Both the position numbers and the translations under genes were made by a program. Shown here one piece after another: positions 4,349-24,650 of a DNA stretch of 26,907 nt. Below the pieces are notes generated by a model. It was not told where the DNA came from. It saw only the letters and a program-made list of their open reading frames with translations, and searched no databases. The DNA is taken from NCBI GenBank assembly GCA_016187725.1, contig JACPJE010000266.1:1-26907 (forward strand), read 5' to 3'. The stretch's first letter is position 1. The number at the start of each line of letters is the position of its first letter. This DNA comes from Candidatus Latescibacterota bacterium (lineage in GTDB: Bacteria; Latescibacterota; UBA2968; UBA8231).

Positions 4349-4951
4349 TTACCTGCTGACCACCACCGATCCATCCGCTGCCAGTTCCGTCACCTTGACC
4401 AGGGTGCCGGTGGGAAGCTCCGGGCCTTCGGTCGCTGCCGGCAGCTCCCGCTGGACGCCTTGAACCGTCAGGATCACCTTGCCCAAACCACTCCGGCGCG
4501 CCGGGATCTTGAGGTAGACCTTCGCCTCCATGCCGACCAGGCTCTGGTCGACTGCCGCGGCCCCGCCCGAGGCCAGTTTTGAAACGCCGTAGAGCATGAA
4601 GGCCACCAGGAACATCAGCGCCGTGCCGGCGACCAGGGAGACCAGCGCGGTGACCAGGATGCCCGTTTGAAACTGGTGGATCATGGCGATGCCGGTCCAC
4701 CCGAACATCATCAGGAAATTGATCAGGTTGCGGATGGTGAACACCGGGAAGTAGGCGTGCTCGCCGGCAACCCCGTCGTGGTGCTGGGCCTCATCGACGC
4801 CTGTGTGGTCGAAGGTCAGGCCCACCAGGGTCAGGATGGTTTGGGCGGCAAACACCAGGGTGGCGGGAACGGCTAGGTACCAGAGCAACTGCTCGAAACC
4901 TGACACGGGCGCCGTCCTTTCGCTTGTGAATCGCGCTGGGAAATGCTCCAT
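4349..4951 (-). CDS. NfeD-like membrane protein (YuaF/YqiJ type, flotillin-associated), ~200 aa
   Basis: Three hydrophobic helices (LLWYLAVPATLVFAAQTILTLVGL, NLINFLMMFGWTGIAMI, GILVTALVSLVAGTALMFLVAF) plus a C-terminal OB-like beta region (KVYLKIPARRSGLGKVILTV...TLVKVTEL). It sits immediately upstream of flotillin in the NfeD-flotillin order. ATG start at 4949-4951; an alternative GTG start at 4993. Confidence 0.6.
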   Translation of the reverse strand: MEHFPARFTSERTAPVSGFEQLLWYLAVPATLVFAAQTILTLVGLTFDHTGVDEAQHHDGVAGEHAYFPVFTIRNLINFLMMFGWTGIAMIHQFQTGILVTALVSLVAGTALMFLVAFMLYGVSKLASGGAAAVDQSLVGMEAKVYLKIPARRSGLGKVILTVQGVQRELPAATEGPELPTGTLVKVTELAADGSVVVSR

Positions 4952-5017
4952 TTGCCGCCAAATATCGTCACCCCCCTCCCCAACTTCAAGCACACCCTGG
5001 GCTCTGCCTCCCCTAGC

Positions 5018-7297
5018 TCAGGGCGCGCTGCGGACGCAGCGGAAACCCACGGTATAGTCAAAGCGCTGTTCGGGGTCGTAGGCCAGACGGTTCGAAACCG
5101 TGTGGATATGGGGATTCTGATCGGCCAGGGAACCGCCGCGCAGGATCTTCAGCCTTTCGCTGCCCGGATCGGCGTTGAAGGGATCCACCAGCGGGGCGCG
5201 GCTATAGTAGTCGCGGGCGTACCAGTCGGCGACCCACTCCCACACATTGCCGGCCAGGTCCATGACCCCGTACGGGCTGGCCCCCTCGGGTTTGGCGCCC
5301 ACCGGCCAGGTGCTGTCCTGGCCGCAGCCGTCCCCCCCATCGTCTATCACGGCCTGGGCGCAACTGGCTTCCTCGTCTCCCCAGGGGTAGCGGCGGCCGT
5401 CTCCACCGGCGGCTTTCTCCCACTCCGCCTCGGTGGGCAGACGCTTGCCTGCCCAGCGGCAGTACTGGTCGGCCTGGGCCCAGCTCAGGGCATTTACCGG
5501 ATGGTCCTCCCGGCCCGGCTGATTCCAGTTGGTGAAGCGGCCTTCAAACTCAAGGCGGTAGGTCTTGGACCCAGAGTGGGGCGGGGTGCATCCACCTCCT
5601 TCTACGCAGGCGCGGTACTGGGCCACGGTCACCTCGACCCGATCCAGGTAGTAAGCGCTCAACTCCGCGGTGTGCGCTGGCCCTTCGTCTCCTTGGCCCT
5701 GGTCGAAACCCATGGAAAAGGGGCCCGCTGGGATGAACACCATCTGGGTGTCCGCAGGTGCCGGGTGGGGCAGGGTATCCCCCTCTGCCTTCATGACCAG
5801 GGCATTGCGCTCCTGCCAGTCCGCCAGGCCAAGGGCCTGGAGTTCGGCTGGCGAGGGCGGCTCAAAGGGCGCCTCCGCGGAAGCGGGCAGGGCATCGCGG
5901 GCGCAGCGGATGCCGATATAGGGGGACCAGCGCAGGGGTCTGAAGCGGTAGCGGTTGGCGGCGCGCAGATCGGGGTTGGGGTCCACGTAATGCCAGGAGT
6001 TGCCCCGCAGGGATTTGTGGAGGGCCGCCTCGGTATTGACCGGGTTGCGCTGCGGACTGCGCGCGTAGTAATCGCGCCCGTACCAATCCGCGGTCCATTC
6101 CCAGACGTTGCCGGCCAGGTCGCGGATGCCGTAGGGGCTGGTGTCGGCTGCACGCGTGGCCACCGGGCCTGGACCGTCGTACCCGCATCCCAGTCCCAGA
6201 CCAGCCTGCATCATCACGGCCCGCTGGCAATTACCGGCCCCGCCCGGGACTTCATCCCCCCAGGGGTAGACCCGGCCCAAGGCCCCGCGGGCGGCCTTTT
6301 CCCATTCGGCCTCGCTGGGCAGGCGCATGCCCGCCCAGCGGCAATAACGCCGCGCGTCGTACCAACTCACGCAGTTGACCGGGTAATTGTCCCCCAGGGC
6401 GGCGCCCCAGGTGCAGGCTTCCCCCTGGGCTGGCTCCGGGCAGGCGCCCTCCTCCGCGCAGGCGCGGTACTGGGCCACGGTCACTTCGCGAGTCTCCAGG
6501 TAATAGGGATCTAGATAGACCTGGTGTTCGGGCTCTTCGTCCTGATATTGAGGGCTGCCCATCGAGAACCAGCCACTGGGAATACCCGCCATCGAGGTCC
6601 ACTGGCCGCTGGGCAGTCTCTGGGTGGTTTGGTCCGGATCGACCAGCAGGATGGGATCGGCATCAGGATCTTGGGGCGCGAAATGGGAGAGGTCGAGGGG
6701 GCGGATGGCAGGGCCGCGCACCTGTACCGTATAGAGGGAAACCTGCTCTGGCCCGGCGCTCTTGTCCGCCGGCAACCCCACGGCTCCGTCCGCCAGGGTC
6801 AACTTGCCGCGGGAGGTGTACTCCCCGGCAGTGAGCAGGAAGAGGTACACCCCGGCAGCCACACCCCGGCGCTGGTCATCGCGGGCATCCCAGCGCAGGA
6901 GGTGTTCCCCGGCGGGCATCTCCCGGTCCACCAGCCGGCGGAGGGGCTGGCCCAGCGCGGTGAAGATCTCCAGGCGGACCCAGGCCGGGGCCGCCATATC
7001 CAGGGGCAAAACGACCACCGGGTTGAAGGGATTGGGGTACGCAGGGCCCAAGTGGGTACGGGCTGGGAGTGGGGGAGGGGCCGTCACGGCAGTGGCTGGT
7101 TCCGGTAGTTCCAGAACATAGGTGCCATCCTCGGCAGTCCGGGTTTCGTAGACCGCGCCATTCTCCTCGCTCAGGTAGTGCACCTGGGCAAAGGGAACCG
7201 GCTGGCCGTCCAGGCGCAACCTCACCTGGCCGCGGACTTGGGCGCCCCAGGCACTGCGGATCAAAAAACACGAAACGAGGAGGAGGTAGCCCCACAT
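5018..7297 (-). CDS. exported multi-domain protein: signal peptide, CarboxypepD_reg-like domain, internal FlgD-Ig/T9SS-type-A-CTD-like domain, and two tandem FGE-sulfatase (SUMF1)-like domains, 759 aa
   Basis: ATG 7295-7297 gives the signal peptide MWGYLLLVSCFLIRSAWG/AQ. The AQVRGQVRLRLDGQPVPFAQVHY region is carboxypeptidase-regulatory-like. AYPNPFNPVVVLPL...VRLEIFTALGQPLRRL...GEHLLRWDARDDQRRGVAAGVYLFLLTAG matches the Por/T9SS C-terminal-domain / FlgD Ig-like pattern, but sits at residues about 100-185. Two SUMF1-like units follow (REVTVAQYRAC...WEWTADWY...RGNSWHY...IGIRCARD and RVEVTVAQYRAC...WEWVADWY...RGGSLAD...GFRCVRSA). Both lack the catalytic Cys pair of true FGE. Confidence 0.7.
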   Translation of the reverse strand: MWGYLLLVSCFLIRSAWGAQVRGQVRLRLDGQPVPFAQVHYLSEENGAVYETRTAEDGTYVLELPEPATAVTAPPPLPARTHLGPAYPNPFNPVVVLPLDMAAPAWVRLEIFTALGQPLRRLVDREMPAGEHLLRWDARDDQRRGVAAGVYLFLLTAGEYTSRGKLTLADGAVGLPADKSAGPEQVSLYTVQVRGPAIRPLDLSHFAPQDPDADPILLVDPDQTTQRLPSGQWTSMAGIPSGWFSMGSPQYQDEEPEHQVYLDPYYLETREVTVAQYRACAEEGACPEPAQGEACTWGAALGDNYPVNCVSWYDARRYCRWAGMRLPSEAEWEKAARGALGRVYPWGDEVPGGAGNCQRAVMMQAGLGLGCGYDGPGPVATRAADTSPYGIRDLAGNVWEWTADWYGRDYYARSPQRNPVNTEAALHKSLRGNSWHYVDPNPDLRAANRYRFRPLRWSPYIGIRCARDALPASAEAPFEPPSPAELQALGLADWQERNALVMKAEGDTLPHPAPADTQMVFIPAGPFSMGFDQGQGDEGPAHTAELSAYYLDRVEVTVAQYRACVEGGGCTPPHSGSKTYRLEFEGRFTNWNQPGREDHPVNALSWAQADQYCRWAGKRLPTEAEWEKAAGGDGRRYPWGDEEASCAQAVIDDGGDGCGQDSTWPVGAKPEGASPYGVMDLAGNVWEWVADWYARDYYSRAPLVDPFNADPGSERLKILRGGSLADQNPHIHTVSNRLAYDPEQRFDYTVGFRCVRSAP

Positions 7298-21293: not shown

Positions 21294-21689
21294 TCAGCCG
21301 CTGACGATGTAGCGGATCATCTCTTCCTCCAGCTCACGGATACGGCGCGACAAGGTCTGCAGCAGGCGGTAGCCCAGTTCAGGATTGTCGTGGATCCGGT
21401 GGAGAATGGTCTCCCGGGAGACGGACATGATCTGCACCTCGCCGCGGGCGCGCACGGTGGTGCGGGCGATACTGGGCGAGACGATGCGTTCGAGAAAGGG
21501 GACCTCGCCGAAGAAGCCCCCCTTGCTCAGCACGGCTTTCTGGATCTGCTGGCCCTGGTCCTCGTGCAGAATTTCGACCTGGCCTTCCCTGACGATGTAC
21601 ATGAACTCGCAGACCGAACCCTGCTGGACGATGATCTGGCCGTCCTCATAGGTGTGGATAGTGGGTGCCATGGTGCCATCGCTGGTCAT
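21294..21689 (-). CDS. standalone cyclic-nucleotide-binding (cNMP/Crp-type effector) domain protein, ~125-131 aa
   Basis: GQIIVQQGSVCEFMYIVREGQVEI...GGFFGEVPFLE...ARTTVRARGEVQIMSV is a canonical cNMP-binding beta-roll with no HTH. Start is ATG 21689 or 21671; neither has a good SD. Confidence 0.7.
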   Translation of the reverse strand: MTSDGTMAPTIHTYEDGQIIVQQGSVCEFMYIVREGQVEILHEDQGQQIQKAVLSKGGFFGEVPFLERIVSPSIARTTVRARGEVQIMSVSRETILHRIHDNPELGYRLLQTLSRRIRELEEEMIRYIVSG

Positions 21690-21741
21690 CGAGAGCGGCC
21701 GAATATGGGTGGCAATGCAGGGGCAAGAGGTGCTGCATAAT

Positions 21742-22083
21742 CTAAGGTTGGTTGAGCAAGTTGTCCAACTCCGCTGCCAGCTGCAGCTGGCGGCTTTCTT
21801 TTTCTTCCCGGGTCTGAAGCTCGTCCCTGAGGCGGAAGATCTGCTGCTCGATTTTGTGTTTTTTTAGCTGCAGCTCGGATTTCTGGCGTTCGGCAGCTTC
21901 GCGCTGGAGACGCAGGGCCTTGAACACGGCGATCTGGGCCTGCCACTCTTGCAGCAGGCCCTTCAGTTCCCGCCGTTGCCGGTTGAGCAGACGCTGAATG
22001 AGGATCTTTTCGACGACCACCAGAGCCACGGCCAGGCTGGTGATGTAAAATGCTTCGGCGGTGGAGGGGAGTTCCATAGCCAT
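21742..22083 (-). CDS. membrane-anchored coiled-coil protein (possible C-terminal part of a split RodZ-like protein), 113 aa
   Basis: I placed the start at ATG 22081-22083 (MAMELPSTAEAFYITSLAVALVVVEKIL = one TM), followed by a heptad-like coiled coil. No SD. The same frame stays open and Pro-rich upstream to 22233, overlapping the 3' end of the HTH gene. Confidence 0.5.
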   Translation of the reverse strand: MAMELPSTAEAFYITSLAVALVVVEKILIQRLLNRQRRELKGLLQEWQAQIAVFKALRLQREAAERQKSELQLKKHKIEQQIFRLRDELQTREEKESRQLQLAAELDNLLNQP

Positions 22084-22105
22084 GCTTCCGGGGAGAGGGA
22101 GGGAT

Positions 22106-22429
22106 TCAACGCGAAAGTCCCAGCGCGGCCCAGCGCCGCACCCAGGAGCGGGCCGGGGGAGCCGGTCTGACCTGGGGCGGGGGAGGGGGCGGGCTGCACA
22201 GGGTTTCGAGTTGCTGCACGATGGTGGCGGCATTCAGGTTCAGGTGTTCGGCATAGGAGCGCAGCGCCAGACGGATGTACACCAGTTCCACCACCTCAAA
22301 GGCGCCGGCTTCGAGGTTTTGCAGGATATAGTGACTCAGGCCGGTATGGCGGTGGACCTGCTCCAGGGTCTTGCCCTGTTCTTCGCGCGCCTGTCGCAGG
22401 CGCCATCCTAATTTTGCCTTATCATCCAT
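22106..22429 (-). CDS. helix-turn-helix protein (RodZ-like HTH_25/XRE-type N-terminal domain) with Pro-rich tail, 108 aa
   Basis: ATG 22427-22429 with AGGAGG 6 nt upstream. LGWRLRQAREEQGKTLEQVHRHTGLSHYILQNLEAGAFE...VYIRLALRSYAEHLNL matches the RodZ-type HTH and following helix. C-terminus is SPPPPPPQVRPAPP. Confidence 0.65.
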   Translation of the reverse strand: MDDKAKLGWRLRQAREEQGKTLEQVHRHTGLSHYILQNLEAGAFEVVELVYIRLALRSYAEHLNLNAATIVQQLETLCSPPPPPPQVRPAPPARSWVRRWAALGLSR

Positions 22430-22495: not shown

Positions 22496-23092
22496 TCAGG
22501 CGTGGGCGCTGCGGCGCCCGGCGTTGGCCCCAGCCCACAATTCCTCGAGTTTTTGCTCCAGATCTCCCAGGGAGACGGGTTTTTCCAGGCAGCAGTCCGC
22601 CCCGCACTCCAGGGCTTTGCGGACGTTCTCCGGGGTGGCATATCCGGTCAGCACCACGACGATGGCCTGGCGGGTCTGCGGGTTGGACTTGATCCCTCTG
22701 CACACCTTGAAGCCGTCGATATTAGGCATCATGAGGTCGAGGATGACCAGTTCCGGGCAGCCCCCGGCGATCTGGATGCCGGCCTCAAAGCCGTCCGTCG
22801 CGGTGGCGACCTCGTAAGCGTTGGTCTTGCTGAAGAAGGTGCTGAGGAATTTGACGACGGCCGGGTCATCGTCCACGATCAGCACTTTCCTCTGAAGGGC
22901 AGGCCCGGTGAGGGGGGGCAGGTTGTACTCCTTGAGAAATTCCTCAAAGTCGGCGCGGCGGACCCGGTGGTGCCGGCCGGGGGTGGTATAGGCCTTGAGC
23001 TTGCCGCTTTTGATCCACTTGCTGACAGCCTCATAGGAAACGCGGCAATGGGCGGCTATTTCTCCGGTGGTCAGCAGGGCCTTATTTCTCAT
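22496..23092 (-). CDS. response regulator with inverted architecture: N-terminal excisionase/MerR-type HTH (HTH_17-like) plus C-terminal REC receiver domain, 198 aa
   Basis: ATG 23090-23092. LLTTGEIAAHCRVSYEAVSKWIKSGKLKAYTTPGRHHRVRRADFEEFL is an excisionase-family HTH. KVLIVDDDPAVV...LVILDLMMPNIDG...IVVVLTGYA...CLEKP is a REC domain with all conserved residues present: DD, phospho-acceptor D, T, K. No histidine kinase is in the window. Confidence 0.75.
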   Translation of the reverse strand: MRNKALLTTGEIAAHCRVSYEAVSKWIKSGKLKAYTTPGRHHRVRRADFEEFLKEYNLPPLTGPALQRKVLIVDDDPAVVKFLSTFFSKTNAYEVATATDGFEAGIQIAGGCPELVILDLMMPNIDGFKVCRGIKSNPQTRQAIVVVLTGYATPENVRKALECGADCCLEKPVSLGDLEQKLEELWAGANAGRRSAHA

Positions 23093-23111
23093 AGGTCTCC
23101 GGTCTCCGCAA

Positions 23112-23165
23112 TAGGTTGGATAAGTTGGAGAAGATTGAAAGGTTGGAATTTTCTCTAAAGAAAAT
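23112..23165. promoter_or_regulatory. divergent-promoter element: four tandem 9-bp repeats (TAGGTTGGA/TAAGTTGGA/GAAGATTGA/AAGGTTGGA) immediately followed by an 18-bp palindrome ATTTTCTCTAAAGAAAAT
   Basis: Read directly. The AT-rich 179-bp gap lies between the response-regulator start (23092, minus) and the plus-strand ORFs (23272 onward). The palindrome matches in 8 of 9 mirrored positions. Confidence 0.45.
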
Positions 23166-23271
23166 CAAGACCGCGCCCATTGTCAAGGGGCCAGGGAGGG
23201 AGATGCCCTTGCCTTTACCGGCAGCCTTGTCTAAAATGCTGAGGCGATTTCCGGCCAGGAGAGGAGCGGGG

Positions 23272-23355
23272 ATGACGGAAACGGAGCAATACCTGTTCGA
23301 TGTACACGGCTATCTGGTGATCAAAGGCGCCCTGTCTGCACAGAAGGCCGCATGA
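23272..23355 (+). CDS. 27-codon ORF (MTETEQYLFDVHGYLVIKGALSAQKAA) with strong SD, overlapping the start of the next gene; leader peptide or remnant of a PhyH-like N-terminus
   Basis: AGGAGAGGAG at 23257-23266, 5 nt before ATG 23272. TGA 23353-23355 overlaps ATG 23352 (ATGA). The peptide resembles the TxEQxxxFxxxGYLVIxGxLS opening of phytanoyl-CoA-dioxygenase-family proteins. Confidence 0.35.
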   Translation: MTETEQYLFDVHGYLVIKGALSAQKAA

Positions 23356-24650
23356 GAGTCCACGCAGACCTCGGCATCCTCGTCCCCCAGGTGTACCTGC
23401 CCGGGCCGGACATCGACCCGCATCGCTGGGCCGCCATCGCCGTCGACCAGTTCACCTCCCAGCCCGAATACTGGGCACGGGCGGAGCGCATCGTCGCCGA
23501 TGCCCCCTCCACCCTGCGCCTGACCCTGCCCGAGATCTACCTCGAAAAACCCGATGAAACGGAGCGGATCCAAGGTATCCAGGCCGCCATGCGCCAGTAC
23601 CTGGAGGCAGGCGTGCTCCAGCCGCGCGAAGGACTCATCTACGTGGAGCGCACCCTGGGCCACGGAGTCCGCAAGGGCCTCATCCTCGCCCTCGACCTGG
23701 AGCGCTACGACTATACCCGGGGCGCCACCAGCCTCATCCGCGCCACCGAGGGGACCATCGTCGAGCGCCTGCCCCCGCGCCGGAAGATCCGCGCCGGCGC
23801 CGCGCTCGAACTGCCTCATATCCTGGTGCTCATCGACGACCCCGGGCGCACGGTCATCGAGCCGGTGGGTGCGGCCAGGAGCTGGCTGGTAAAACTCTAC
23901 GACTTTGAGCTGATGCTCGGCGGCGGGCGGCTCGCCGGCTATGCCGTGGACGACCTGGCGCAGGAGCAGGCGGTCATCGGAGCCCTGCGCGGTCTGGTCG
24001 GGGGGGCGGGAGGGGAAGCGCTGCTCTTTGCGGTGGGCGATGGCAACCACTCGCTGGCGGCGGCCAAGGTGCTGTGGGAGGAGTTGAAGCCGGCGGTGGG
24101 CATGGACCACCCTGCCCGCTATGCCCTGGTCGAGGTAGTGAACATCCACGACGAGGGATTGAGCTTCGAGCCCATCCACCGGGTGCTCTTCGGGTTGCGG
24201 CAGGATTTCTTCGCCTTCTTGCGGCAATCTTGTGGAGAGCGCCTCACCTGTACGCCCGTGGCCAGCGCCGCAGCGCTGGTGGAACGCGTCGCCGCGGCCA
24301 GGGACGGGGCGGGACATACCGTCGGCCTCGGCGGCGGCGGGAGCGACAGCCCCTTCTGCGCGGTCGAGATCGCCGACCCTGTAGCCAGTCTGCCGGCCGG
24401 CACCATCCAGGATCTGCTCGACGCCTTTATGGAGGCCGGAGGGGCAGAAAAAATCGACTATGTACACGGAGAGGAAGTGACCTTGCGCCTGGGCAGCCAG
24501 CCCGGCAATCTGGGCCTCTGCCTGCCCCACCTGGACAAGGCTGCGCTCTTCAGGACCGTCCGGCGCGACGGGGTCATGCCGCGCAAGACCTTCTCCCTGG
24601 GCGAGGCGCACGAGAAGCGTTTCTACATGGAGGCGCGCAAGATCGCCTGA
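23352..24650 (+). CDS. conserved hypothetical protein, possibly DUF1015 family, 432 aa
   Basis: GC3-biased 1.3-kb ORF. The N-terminal pattern and the LIYVERTLGHGVRKGLILALDLERYDY...ATEGTIVERLPP...LPHILVLIDDP stretch are reminiscent, from my memory of that family, of DUF1015 (COG4198). There is also a GDGNHSLAAAK motif. Confidence 0.5.
   Translation: MRVHADLGILVPQVYLPGPDIDPHRWAAIAVDQFTSQPEYWARAERIVADAPSTLRLTLPEIYLEKPDETERIQGIQAAMRQYLEAGVLQPREGLIYVERTLGHGVRKGLILALDLERYDYTRGATSLIRATEGTIVERLPPRRKIRAGAALELPHILVLIDDPGRTVIEPVGAARSWLVKLYDFELMLGGGRLAGYAVDDLAQEQAVIGALRGLVGGAGGEALLFAVGDGNHSLAAAKVLWEELKPAVGMDHPARYALVEVVNIHDEGLSFEPIHRVLFGLRQDFFAFLRQSCGERLTCTPVASAAALVERVAAARDGAGHTVGLGGGGSDSPFCAVEIADPVASLPAGTIQDLLDAFMEAGGAEKIDYVHGEEVTLRLGSQPGNLGLCLPHLDKAALFRTVRRDGVMPRKTFSLGEAHEKRFYMEARKIA

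Follow-up and report, generated by a model that had tools for sequence, protein, structure and literature searches.

A phased array of four 9-bp repeats as the probable operator of a BldC-like response regulator in a Latescibacterota genome

The window analyzed here is a 26,907-nucleotide stretch of DNA from a Candidatus Latescibacterota bacterium (contig JACPJE010000266.1 of assembly GCA_016187725.1). The intergenic region at 23093-23271 lies between the minus-strand gene for a 198-aa response regulator (22496-23092) and plus-strand genes that start at 23272, and it contains a tandem array of four 9-bp units that is probably the operator of the adjacent regulator itself. The array is a real and biologically meaningful feature, and the sequence comparisons place a known mode of DNA binding in a new protein context. 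The functional steps, namely binding, its stoichiometry, the sign of the regulation, and the phosphorylation state that is competent for binding, are what we infer from these comparisons. A preliminary description of the region proposed that the repeats are the footprint of the neighboring oligomerizing helix-turn-helix (HTH) regulator acting on its own gene. That proposal very probably holds in light of the conservation among orthologues, the recurrence of arrays at paralogues, the covariation of the repeats with the recognition helix, and the BldC-like HTH domain.

The array occupies 23112-23147 and reads TAGGTTGGA TAAGTTGGA GAAGATTGA AAGGTTGGA on the plus strand, just as the preliminary description had placed it, with a divergent third unit. 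It starts 19 nt from the regulator ATG at 23092. In a repeat search of the window, good copies were returned at three positions, 23110, 23119, and 23137, with 82-100% identity; unit three of the array is degenerate. The proposed operator in the frame W4-N4-C on the sense strand of the regulator is 23115-23150 (minus strand), which is the same array shifted by 3 nt. Its four head-to-tail units are R1, AATTCCAAC (23150-23142); R2, CTTTCAATC (23141-23133); R3, TTCTCCAAC (23132-23124); and R4, TTATCCAAC (23123-23115). The self-identity of the array has a single peak at a shift of 9 (0.65 versus 0.21-0.38 at other shifts; shuffle p = 0.0002), and the array ranks first for period-9 specificity among the 36-nt stretches of the 26.9 kb. 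A search of the genome for other occurrences of the motif was also suggested as a check, and within the window the result depends on what is counted. The heptamer RGTTGGA alone is at background frequency (9 observed versus 5.7 expected), whereas the phased arrangement GTTGGA-N3-GTTGGA-N12-GTTGGA occurs once against 0.00 expected in shuffles with two mismatches allowed. A position weight matrix scan of the window revealed no second phased cluster. The reported AT-richness is borne out by a GC content of 31.5% at 23112-23165 compared to 66.4% for the whole window, which is the joint lowest value for any 54-nt stretch. Positions 1-59 at the contig end are as AT-rich (31% GC) and lie downstream of a minus-strand gene (60-2060) for a 666-aa protein with no Pfam match.

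Phylogenetic footprinting, another check that had been proposed, shows that the phase and the position of the array are conserved at orthologous promoters. GTDB genomes and Joint Genome Institute metagenomes were scanned with an alignment of 25 homologues, which yielded 131 loci. The orthologue set consists of eight upstream regions, including the window, from seven lineages with 63-100% protein identity. All eight can be aligned from TTGACA to the start codon, and the sequences 5' of TTGACA are unrelated. On the sense strand of every region, TTGACA is followed after 16-17 bp by a T-rich hexamer and then, about 8-9 bp further on, by TTCCAAC, TTCAATC, xxCAAC, and a variable fourth unit, with GAGG and ATG after them. 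R1 to R3 are kept at the exact 9-bp phase in the seven orthologous loci besides the window, and R2, which looks degenerate in the window (TCAATC), is among the best conserved units. Self-identity peaked at period 9 alone in all six lineages tested (mean 0.55 versus 0.22-0.33). One orthologue (L005, CAMAVQ01) is labeled Gemmatimonas phototrophica, at odds with the Latescibacterota labels of the others. A group of six paralogues with about 50-54% identity (L010, L012, L015, L068, L070, and L074) carries TATCTTCAAAAATTCAAATTATTATGG, identical in five of them and different at three positions in L010. The 17-bp spacer just 5' of it has wholly diverged except in near-identical loci. By this comparison the conservation of TATCTTCAAAAATTCAAATTATTATGG is a second, independent footprint of the -10 hexamer plus the repeats.

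The regulator combines the Pfam domains HTH_17, the "excisionase-type" HTH (residues 6-55, E = 1e-12), and Response_reg (residues 70-182, E = 1.9e-24). It is laid out as a BldC-like winged HTH (about residues 6-55), a Pro-rich linker (56-67), and a receiver (68-194). The receiver retains the acidic pocket D74/D75, the phospho-acceptor D119, T149, and K171, and D74, D75, D119, T149, and K171-P172 are invariant in the 25 homologues, as would be expected of a two-component response regulator. A histidine kinase gene (HisKA/HATPase) was not found in the 26.9-kb window, which makes the regulator an orphan in its neighborhood. The protein is identical to one annotated in a Candidatus Latescibacteria metagenome-assembled genome (MAG), and its sequence is also present in four independent Logan assemblies. 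The best single-receiver match of the receiver domain in the PDB, behind PleD entries only, is 3CNB (E = 9.5e-30), a structural-genomics receiver domain with the annotation "DNA-binding response regulator, merR family" whose parent protein may have the same architecture.

The DNA-binding domain was compared to known structures by sequence and by fold. A phmmer search of the PDB with residues 1-67 gave BldC as the only significant match (6AMA, E = 2.9e-6; 6AMK, E = 3.3e-6; 47-49 aligned residues), followed by a cobalamin-binding MerR-type protein (E = 0.018) and Pukovnik Xis (E = 0.8). The top seven Foldseek matches of an AlphaFold2 (AF2) domain model (predicted local distance difference test score 80) are BldC chains with target-normalized template modeling (TM) scores of 0.75-0.87 and 34-38% identity, and the matches after BldC are SoxR, Pukovnik Xis, RacA, and CarH. 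The AF2 models have a beta-alpha-alpha-beta-alpha order (H9-16, H20-29, E42/43-45, H46-55) followed by the linker, which is modeled at lower confidence, and the receiver; there is no coiled-coil. BldC residues L11, E16, R22, V23, W31, K33, T42, G44, H46, and R48 correspond to L6, E11, R17, V18, W26, K28, T37, G39, H41, and R43 of the regulator, and these are mostly invariant in the 25-sequence alignment. Among the counterparts of the BldC wing and backbone DNA-contact residues (H46, R47/R48, W31, and K33), H41, R43, and W26 are invariant in the homologues and K28 is present. The BldC interface sets F21, V23, and W31 against L11, I40, T42, L43, and G44, has a salt bridge between R22 and E16, and calls for an uncharged residue at position 43. 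Of the corresponding residues, L6, E11, R17, V18, W26, T37, and G39 are kept, and by analogy with BldC a head-to-tail contact is plausible.

The BldC-DNA structures (6AMA and 6AMK) have one subunit on each 9-bp direct repeat, consensus AATTNNNN(C), with the subunits arranged head-to-tail (PMC5859096, Schumacher et al. 2018). The wing and His46 enter the narrowed AT-rich minor groove, the recognition helix lies in the major groove, and natural sites have a variable number of repeats (PMC5859096). The period of 9 bp, which would be unusual for a feature driven by the helical repeat, is exactly the per-subunit footprint of BldC. The regulator resembles Streptomyces BldC as its best match in both sequence and fold, in having a MerR-like winged helix without a coiled-coil, in repeat units that begin with an AT-rich tetrad and continue into a brief specific portion (AATTNNNN(C) in BldC versus W4-xCAA-C here), and in candidate sites that lie in promoters with a variable number of repeats. 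The sequence, fold, DNA contacts, and candidate-site architecture (9-bp repeats, AT-rich tetrad, and variable repeat number) thus all point to a BldC-type domain. The regulator is an HTH-receiver fusion and not a BldC orthologue (198 aa versus a single domain of about 70 residues). BldC is a 68-residue, stand-alone actinomycete protein that controls a large regulon and for which no signal input is known, whereas the protein described here has a fused C-terminal receiver, a site at its own promoter, and a Latescibacterota/Handelsmanbacteria MAG as its host.

Arrays of the same period recur beside the genes of related regulators. In a family set of 90 non-redundant HTH_17-receiver loci (513 kb), 20 of the 90 period-9 arrays detected by Tandem Repeats Finder (TRF) lie within 120 nt 5' of the regulator gene versus 1.9 expected, an approximately 10-fold excess (p = 4e-15). 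Of the 42 arrays in the upstream 120 nt, 20 have period 9, compared to 70 of 712 elsewhere. In a test independent of TRF, the stretch with the highest period-9 specificity in the entire locus was located in this upstream region in 11 of 82 loci versus 1.7 expected. The p values of these two tests and of the helix comparison below are too small, since related loci were counted as though they were independent; the number of independent repeat types is about 15. Family arrays consist of 2-4 units, with 4.6 copies counted in one TRF array, and are mainly of period 9 with a few of period 10. The analogous arrays in paralogues of the same MAGs and in distant homologues of other phyla are AATTCCAAA x3, ATTTTCCCA x3, TTCAAAAATTCAAATTA, ATATGTTGC x3, ATGTAACAA x3, AAATCAATC x2, and AAAGCTGTA x2. 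The W4-N4-C frame fits all four units of the window and most family arrays in the sense orientation, a fit that is only suggestive given nine frames on two strands and AT-rich units, and ATATGTTGC fits in both orientations. Distant members with unrelated 9-bp units include L100, L104, L106, L107, L035, L036, L116, L113, and L049; their units are ATATGTTGC x3, ATTTGTTAC x2, ATGTAACAA x3, AAAGCTGTA x2 within a promoter spacer, and AATTTCG x3 5' of a -35 hexamer.

The unit sequence varies together with the recognition helix. YCAA arrays are found in 10 of the 25 loci with Glu at the position of BldC K26 and in none of the 65 others, and GTT[GA]C arrays are found in six of the eight loci with the helix xRxT[MI][WY]RW and in none of the 82 others. 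Phased YCAA chains occur five times in regulator upstream regions and once elsewhere in 332 kb searched on both strands. Paralogues in the same genome have different helices and different arrays; the VGJS01 MAG, for example, encodes three paralogous regulators with different helices (L008, L015, and L016). Arrays are also present in paralogous or distant loci that lack the HTH_25, 111-aa, and cyclic nucleotide (cNMP)-binding protein genes found downstream of the regulator in the window, and therefore the regulator is their only constant partner. The array travels with the regulator gene and not with the divergent promoter or the HTH_25 gene.

The position of the array relative to promoter-like hexamers suggests how it would act. 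The predicted -35 hexamer of the regulator promoter is TTGACA at 23181-23186 (minus strand), and it is kept in all eight orthologous upstream regions (one is TCGACA) and in most paralogues. The predicted -10 hexamer, TTTCTT (23158-23163, minus strand), follows 17 bp after it. All orthologues have the 16-17-bp spacing and a T-rich -10 hexamer, and other lineages have better hexamers at the same position, including TATAAT (L072) and TATTAT (L017); TAAAAT also occurs. A transcription start predicted near 23151 would place the array at about +2 to +37. In many independent lineages the first repeat begins 0-10 nt past the -10 hexamer; the L113 array is located inside the spacer, and that of L036 overlaps the -10 hexamer. 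These positions are consistent with occlusion of RNA polymerase. At the Shine-Dalgarno region of the window there is a tandem 7-bp duplication, GGAGACC GGAGACC (23094-23107, minus strand), identified by the repeat search; in the upstream alignment all orthologues show GAGG only once at this place, next to a gap of 6-7 nt.

By analogy with BldC, each 9-bp unit would bind one N-terminal domain, and four subunits in head-to-tail contact would cover about 36 bp. The wing would sit in the AT-rich first four base pairs of the unit and the recognition helix would read the xCAAC part. Because the array begins about 9 bp after the predicted -10 hexamer, the filament should repress. A four-subunit filament over the predicted start would block open-complex formation or promoter escape, either excluding RNA polymerase or trapping it, and it would thereby repress its own operon, which encodes the regulator, the HTH_25 protein, the 111-aa protein, and the cNMP-binding protein. 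We propose that a kinase encoded outside this neighborhood switches assembly on or off by phosphorylating D119. Autorepression is the favored sign and likely, but the sign is uncertain because the orthologue group has weak -10 hexamers and BldC both activates and represses (PMC6428758).

Several observations weigh against this reading, in addition to the relatedness of the loci in the association tests. Judged simply as a tandem repeat the array is weak, since TRF detects only 2.6 copies of period 9 in it (score 32), and R4 is poorly conserved in several orthologues. The predicted -10 hexamer matches TATAAT at three of six positions and would suit a promoter that requires activation. The base-reading residues K26 and R30 of BldC are E21 and K25 in the regulator, and therefore its motif would differ from the BldC motif. 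The interface carries three substitutions, all uncharged (F21 to C16, I40 to Y35, and L43 to P38). Some family members have no array, and the Anaerolineae members lie behind another gene with no obvious promoter of their own. A literature search for experimental binding, transcription start site, or expression data on any family member found none.

The same protein could act positively from the same site, with a filament that bends or untwists the DNA in the manner of MerR or BldC and aids RNA polymerase at a weak -10 hexamer. Promoters of the orthologue group do have poor -10 hexamers (3-5 of 6 matches), BldC activates 91 direct targets (PMC6428758), and the L049 array lies 5' of the -35 hexamer and overlaps it, an activator-like position. 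MerR-type activation uses a 19-20-bp spacer (PMC12266134), whereas the arrays of most lineages lie over the start site or the -10 hexamer of a promoter with a normal 17-bp spacer, and sites downstream of +1 are typical of repressors. Positive autoregulation thus appears unlikely. The repeats might instead work in the mRNA leader as an unstructured, G-free, C/A/U-rich 5' untranslated region that aids translation or is recognized by an RNA-binding protein, S1 or Hfq for example. The sense strand is G-free over 43 nt (23110-23152), the array would be transcribed if the promoter assignment is right, and the predicted fold of the leader is not significant (z = -0.76). Unstructured RNA would need neither exact 9-nt phasing nor a conserved order of units, the arrays of other clades contain G (ATATGTTGC and AAAGCTGTA), and the unit covaries with a DNA-recognition helix. 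A search of Rfam at E <= 1 assigned no family (the best match was a nematode snoRNA model at E = 0.075 and 20.5 bits versus a 75-bit cut-off), and RNAalifold on the eight orthologues gave no consensus pairs. The arrays in the promoter spacer of L113 and 5' of the -35 hexamer of L049 are not transcribed, which argues for action at the DNA level, and we consider the leader explanation highly improbable. A structured RNA element is ruled out by the lack of an Rfam family, the non-significant fold, and the lack of a consensus structure.

The preferred reading, an operator for the regulator, was also weighed against binding by another protein and against a lack of function. The HTH_25 gene follows the regulator in the operon, and its product, a nucleoid-associated protein, or DnaA might bind the array. 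The DnaA box consensus is TTATCCACA, and R4, TTATCCAAC, matches it at seven of nine positions. R4 is the least conserved unit, however, the conserved orthologous units TTTCCAACT, ATTCAATCT, and AGTTCAACT lack the CACA of the DnaA box, and there is no replication context. The occurrence of arrays without the HTH_25, 111-aa, and cNMP genes and their tracking of the regulator's own recognition helix also speak against another protein, and a different binder has a very small probability. That the array is a functionless product of slippage or duplication in an AT-rich intergenic region, or a plasmid-type iteron set, is scarcely credible. The low TRF score and the neighboring GGAGACC duplication, which shows that slippage occurs here, would fit the former, but the array is conserved across orthologues of 63-100% identity with diverged flanks and recurs across phyla. 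Typical iterons are repeats of about 17-22 bp that lie beside a rep gene and an origin and serve in the control of replication. The array shares with them only the form of tandem direct repeats in an AT-rich intergenic region beside a gene for a DNA-binding protein; its units measure 9 bp, there is no Rep gene or origin feature here, and the neighborhood is chromosomal and consists of metabolic and regulatory genes. The term "iteron-like" in the preliminary description is therefore descriptive only, the unit being shorter than typical iterons and replication context being absent. DnaA boxes and iterons are ruled out on unit length, motif conservation, and context.

Directly abutting the array is the sequence ATTTTCTCTAAAGAAAAT (plus strand, 23148-23165), which had been called an 18-bp palindrome and a dyad site. 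It is a genuine inverted repeat, ATTTTCT-CTAA-AGAAAAT (23148-23165, unstranded), that consists of two 7-nt arms around a 4-nt spacer and is not a perfect 18-mer. It is the only one of its kind in the window, with 0 expected in shuffles. A role as an operator fares less well. The arms match at seven of seven positions in this window alone and at three to six of seven in the seven orthologous loci, which is the level of random AT-rich 22-mers, and the repeat shares sequence with the -10 hexamer, with the predicted start, and with R1 over its first 3 nt. It therefore appears to be lineage-specific and merely the -10/start region.

The preliminary description also allowed that the repeats control the plus-strand genes from 23272. 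A divergent sigma-70-type promoter, TTGCCT-17-TAAAAT (23209-23237, plus strand), is placed back-to-back with the regulator promoter, and the gap between the two -35 hexamers is 22 bp. The element ACTTGCC-N17-TAAAAT is kept at a fixed distance from the ATG of a PhyH-like gene in all seven loci compared (the window, L005, L006, L007, L066, L063, and L064). Its conservation indicates that this uncultivated lineage uses promoters of the canonical sigma-70 type. An extra gene and about 555 bp separate the divergent promoter from the array and regulator promoter in four of the seven loci, representing three lineages. Because the divergent promoter is conserved independently and is separated from the array in these four loci, the array is not a generally shared divergent operator, and the suggested control of the plus-strand genes is not upheld as a general function. 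The array may have a local effect on the divergent genes in this window. The extra small gene (MAKKKQGRH... to ...IRELFPG) lies between the PhyH and regulator promoters in L005, L006, L007, and L066 and is absent from the window, L063, and L064.

BldC has been described as unique among MerR-like transcription factors in binding direct repeats with nothing but its winged helix, and as the first of a family of small stand-alone proteins (PMC5859096). Excisionases and recombination directionality factors (lambda Xis, Pukovnik Xis 4J2N, D29 Gp36, and RdfS) share with the regulator the HTH_17 or "excisionase family" domain and bind tandem direct repeats cooperatively as short filaments, and Pukovnik Xis is the next small-protein fold match after BldC (target-normalized TM score 0.74-0.75). 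D29 Gp36 represses transcription through direct repeats, though with a spacing of 15-19 nt rather than 9 bp (PMC12266134). Unlike the regulator, the excisionases belong to phages or mobile elements, are mostly architectural proteins of recombination, and have no receiver. The window shows no integrase and no sign of a mobile-element context. The OmpR/PhoB family consists of phosphorylation-controlled winged-helix regulators that bind direct repeats such as pho boxes head-to-tail and commonly regulate their own genes. The regulator differs from them in its domain order, with the HTH at the N terminus and the receiver at the C terminus, in its MerR/Xis-like fold, and in a repeat of 9 bp versus about 10-11 bp. 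The binding of OmpR/PhoB-family regulators to tandem direct repeats is mentioned in the BldC work (PMC5859096).

That a response regulator should control its own gene through direct repeats is, in itself, ordinary. A literature search for HTH_17/excisionase-type or BldC-like response regulators found nothing relevant, and NCBIfam has no model above the cut-off for the HTH_17-receiver architecture. An exhaustive phmmer search returned 425 representatives at E <= 1e-30, a figure that gives the order of magnitude only since it mixes two-domain homologues (about 190-250 aa, roughly one-third of the top 150) with multi-receiver proteins. HTH_17-receiver proteins are found in Latescibacterota, Gemmatimonadota, Chloroflexota, Desulfobacterota, Betaproteobacteria, and other taxa. 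They could be a widespread group of unstudied regulators in which receiver phosphorylation gates BldC-style filaments and each lineage or paralogue has a private 9-mer matched to its helix, a generalization on which our judgment is evenly balanced. If it is true, several dozen natural helix/operator pairs would provide a readable recognition code for BldC/Xis-type winged helices. The 9-bp head-to-tail mode of BldC would then be coupled, across many phyla that have been little studied, to two-component signaling in proteins with inverted domain order, giving a signal-controlled version of a DNA-coating regulator. The window would supply a testable prediction of site, stoichiometry, and sign for an orphan regulator of an uncultivated lineage.

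The genes downstream of the regulator on the minus strand (21294-22429) probably form an operon with it, and their order is conserved in most orthologous loci. They encode a 107-aa HTH_25/RodZ-like protein (22106-22429; domain search), a 111-aa protein that by eye has a hydrophobic N terminus and a coiled-coil-like remainder (21742-22077), and a stand-alone 131-aa protein with a cyclic-nucleotide-binding domain (21294-21689). The exceptions to the order are L005, which lacks the 111-aa gene, and L007, where the contig ends before these genes. L005 also has about 1 kb of extra sequence (4600-5600) between the regulator and the HTH_25 gene. On the plus strand, the first gene is a 27-codon remnant of a PhyH-like dioxygenase gene (23272-23355) with the peptide MTETEQYLFDVHGYLVIKGALSAQKAA, about 255 codons having been lost compared to the full length. 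The full-length gene product of L063 has 281 aa, that of L005 is similar at about 277 aa counted from the ATG, and the other orthologous loci match the PhyH-like N terminus and have room for a full-length gene. The stop codon of the remnant overlaps the ATG of the DUF1015 gene (23352-24650, plus strand) in the sequence ATGA at 23352, and thus the conserved PhyH promoter would now drive DUF1015 directly. The remnant structure is also present in four independent assemblies.

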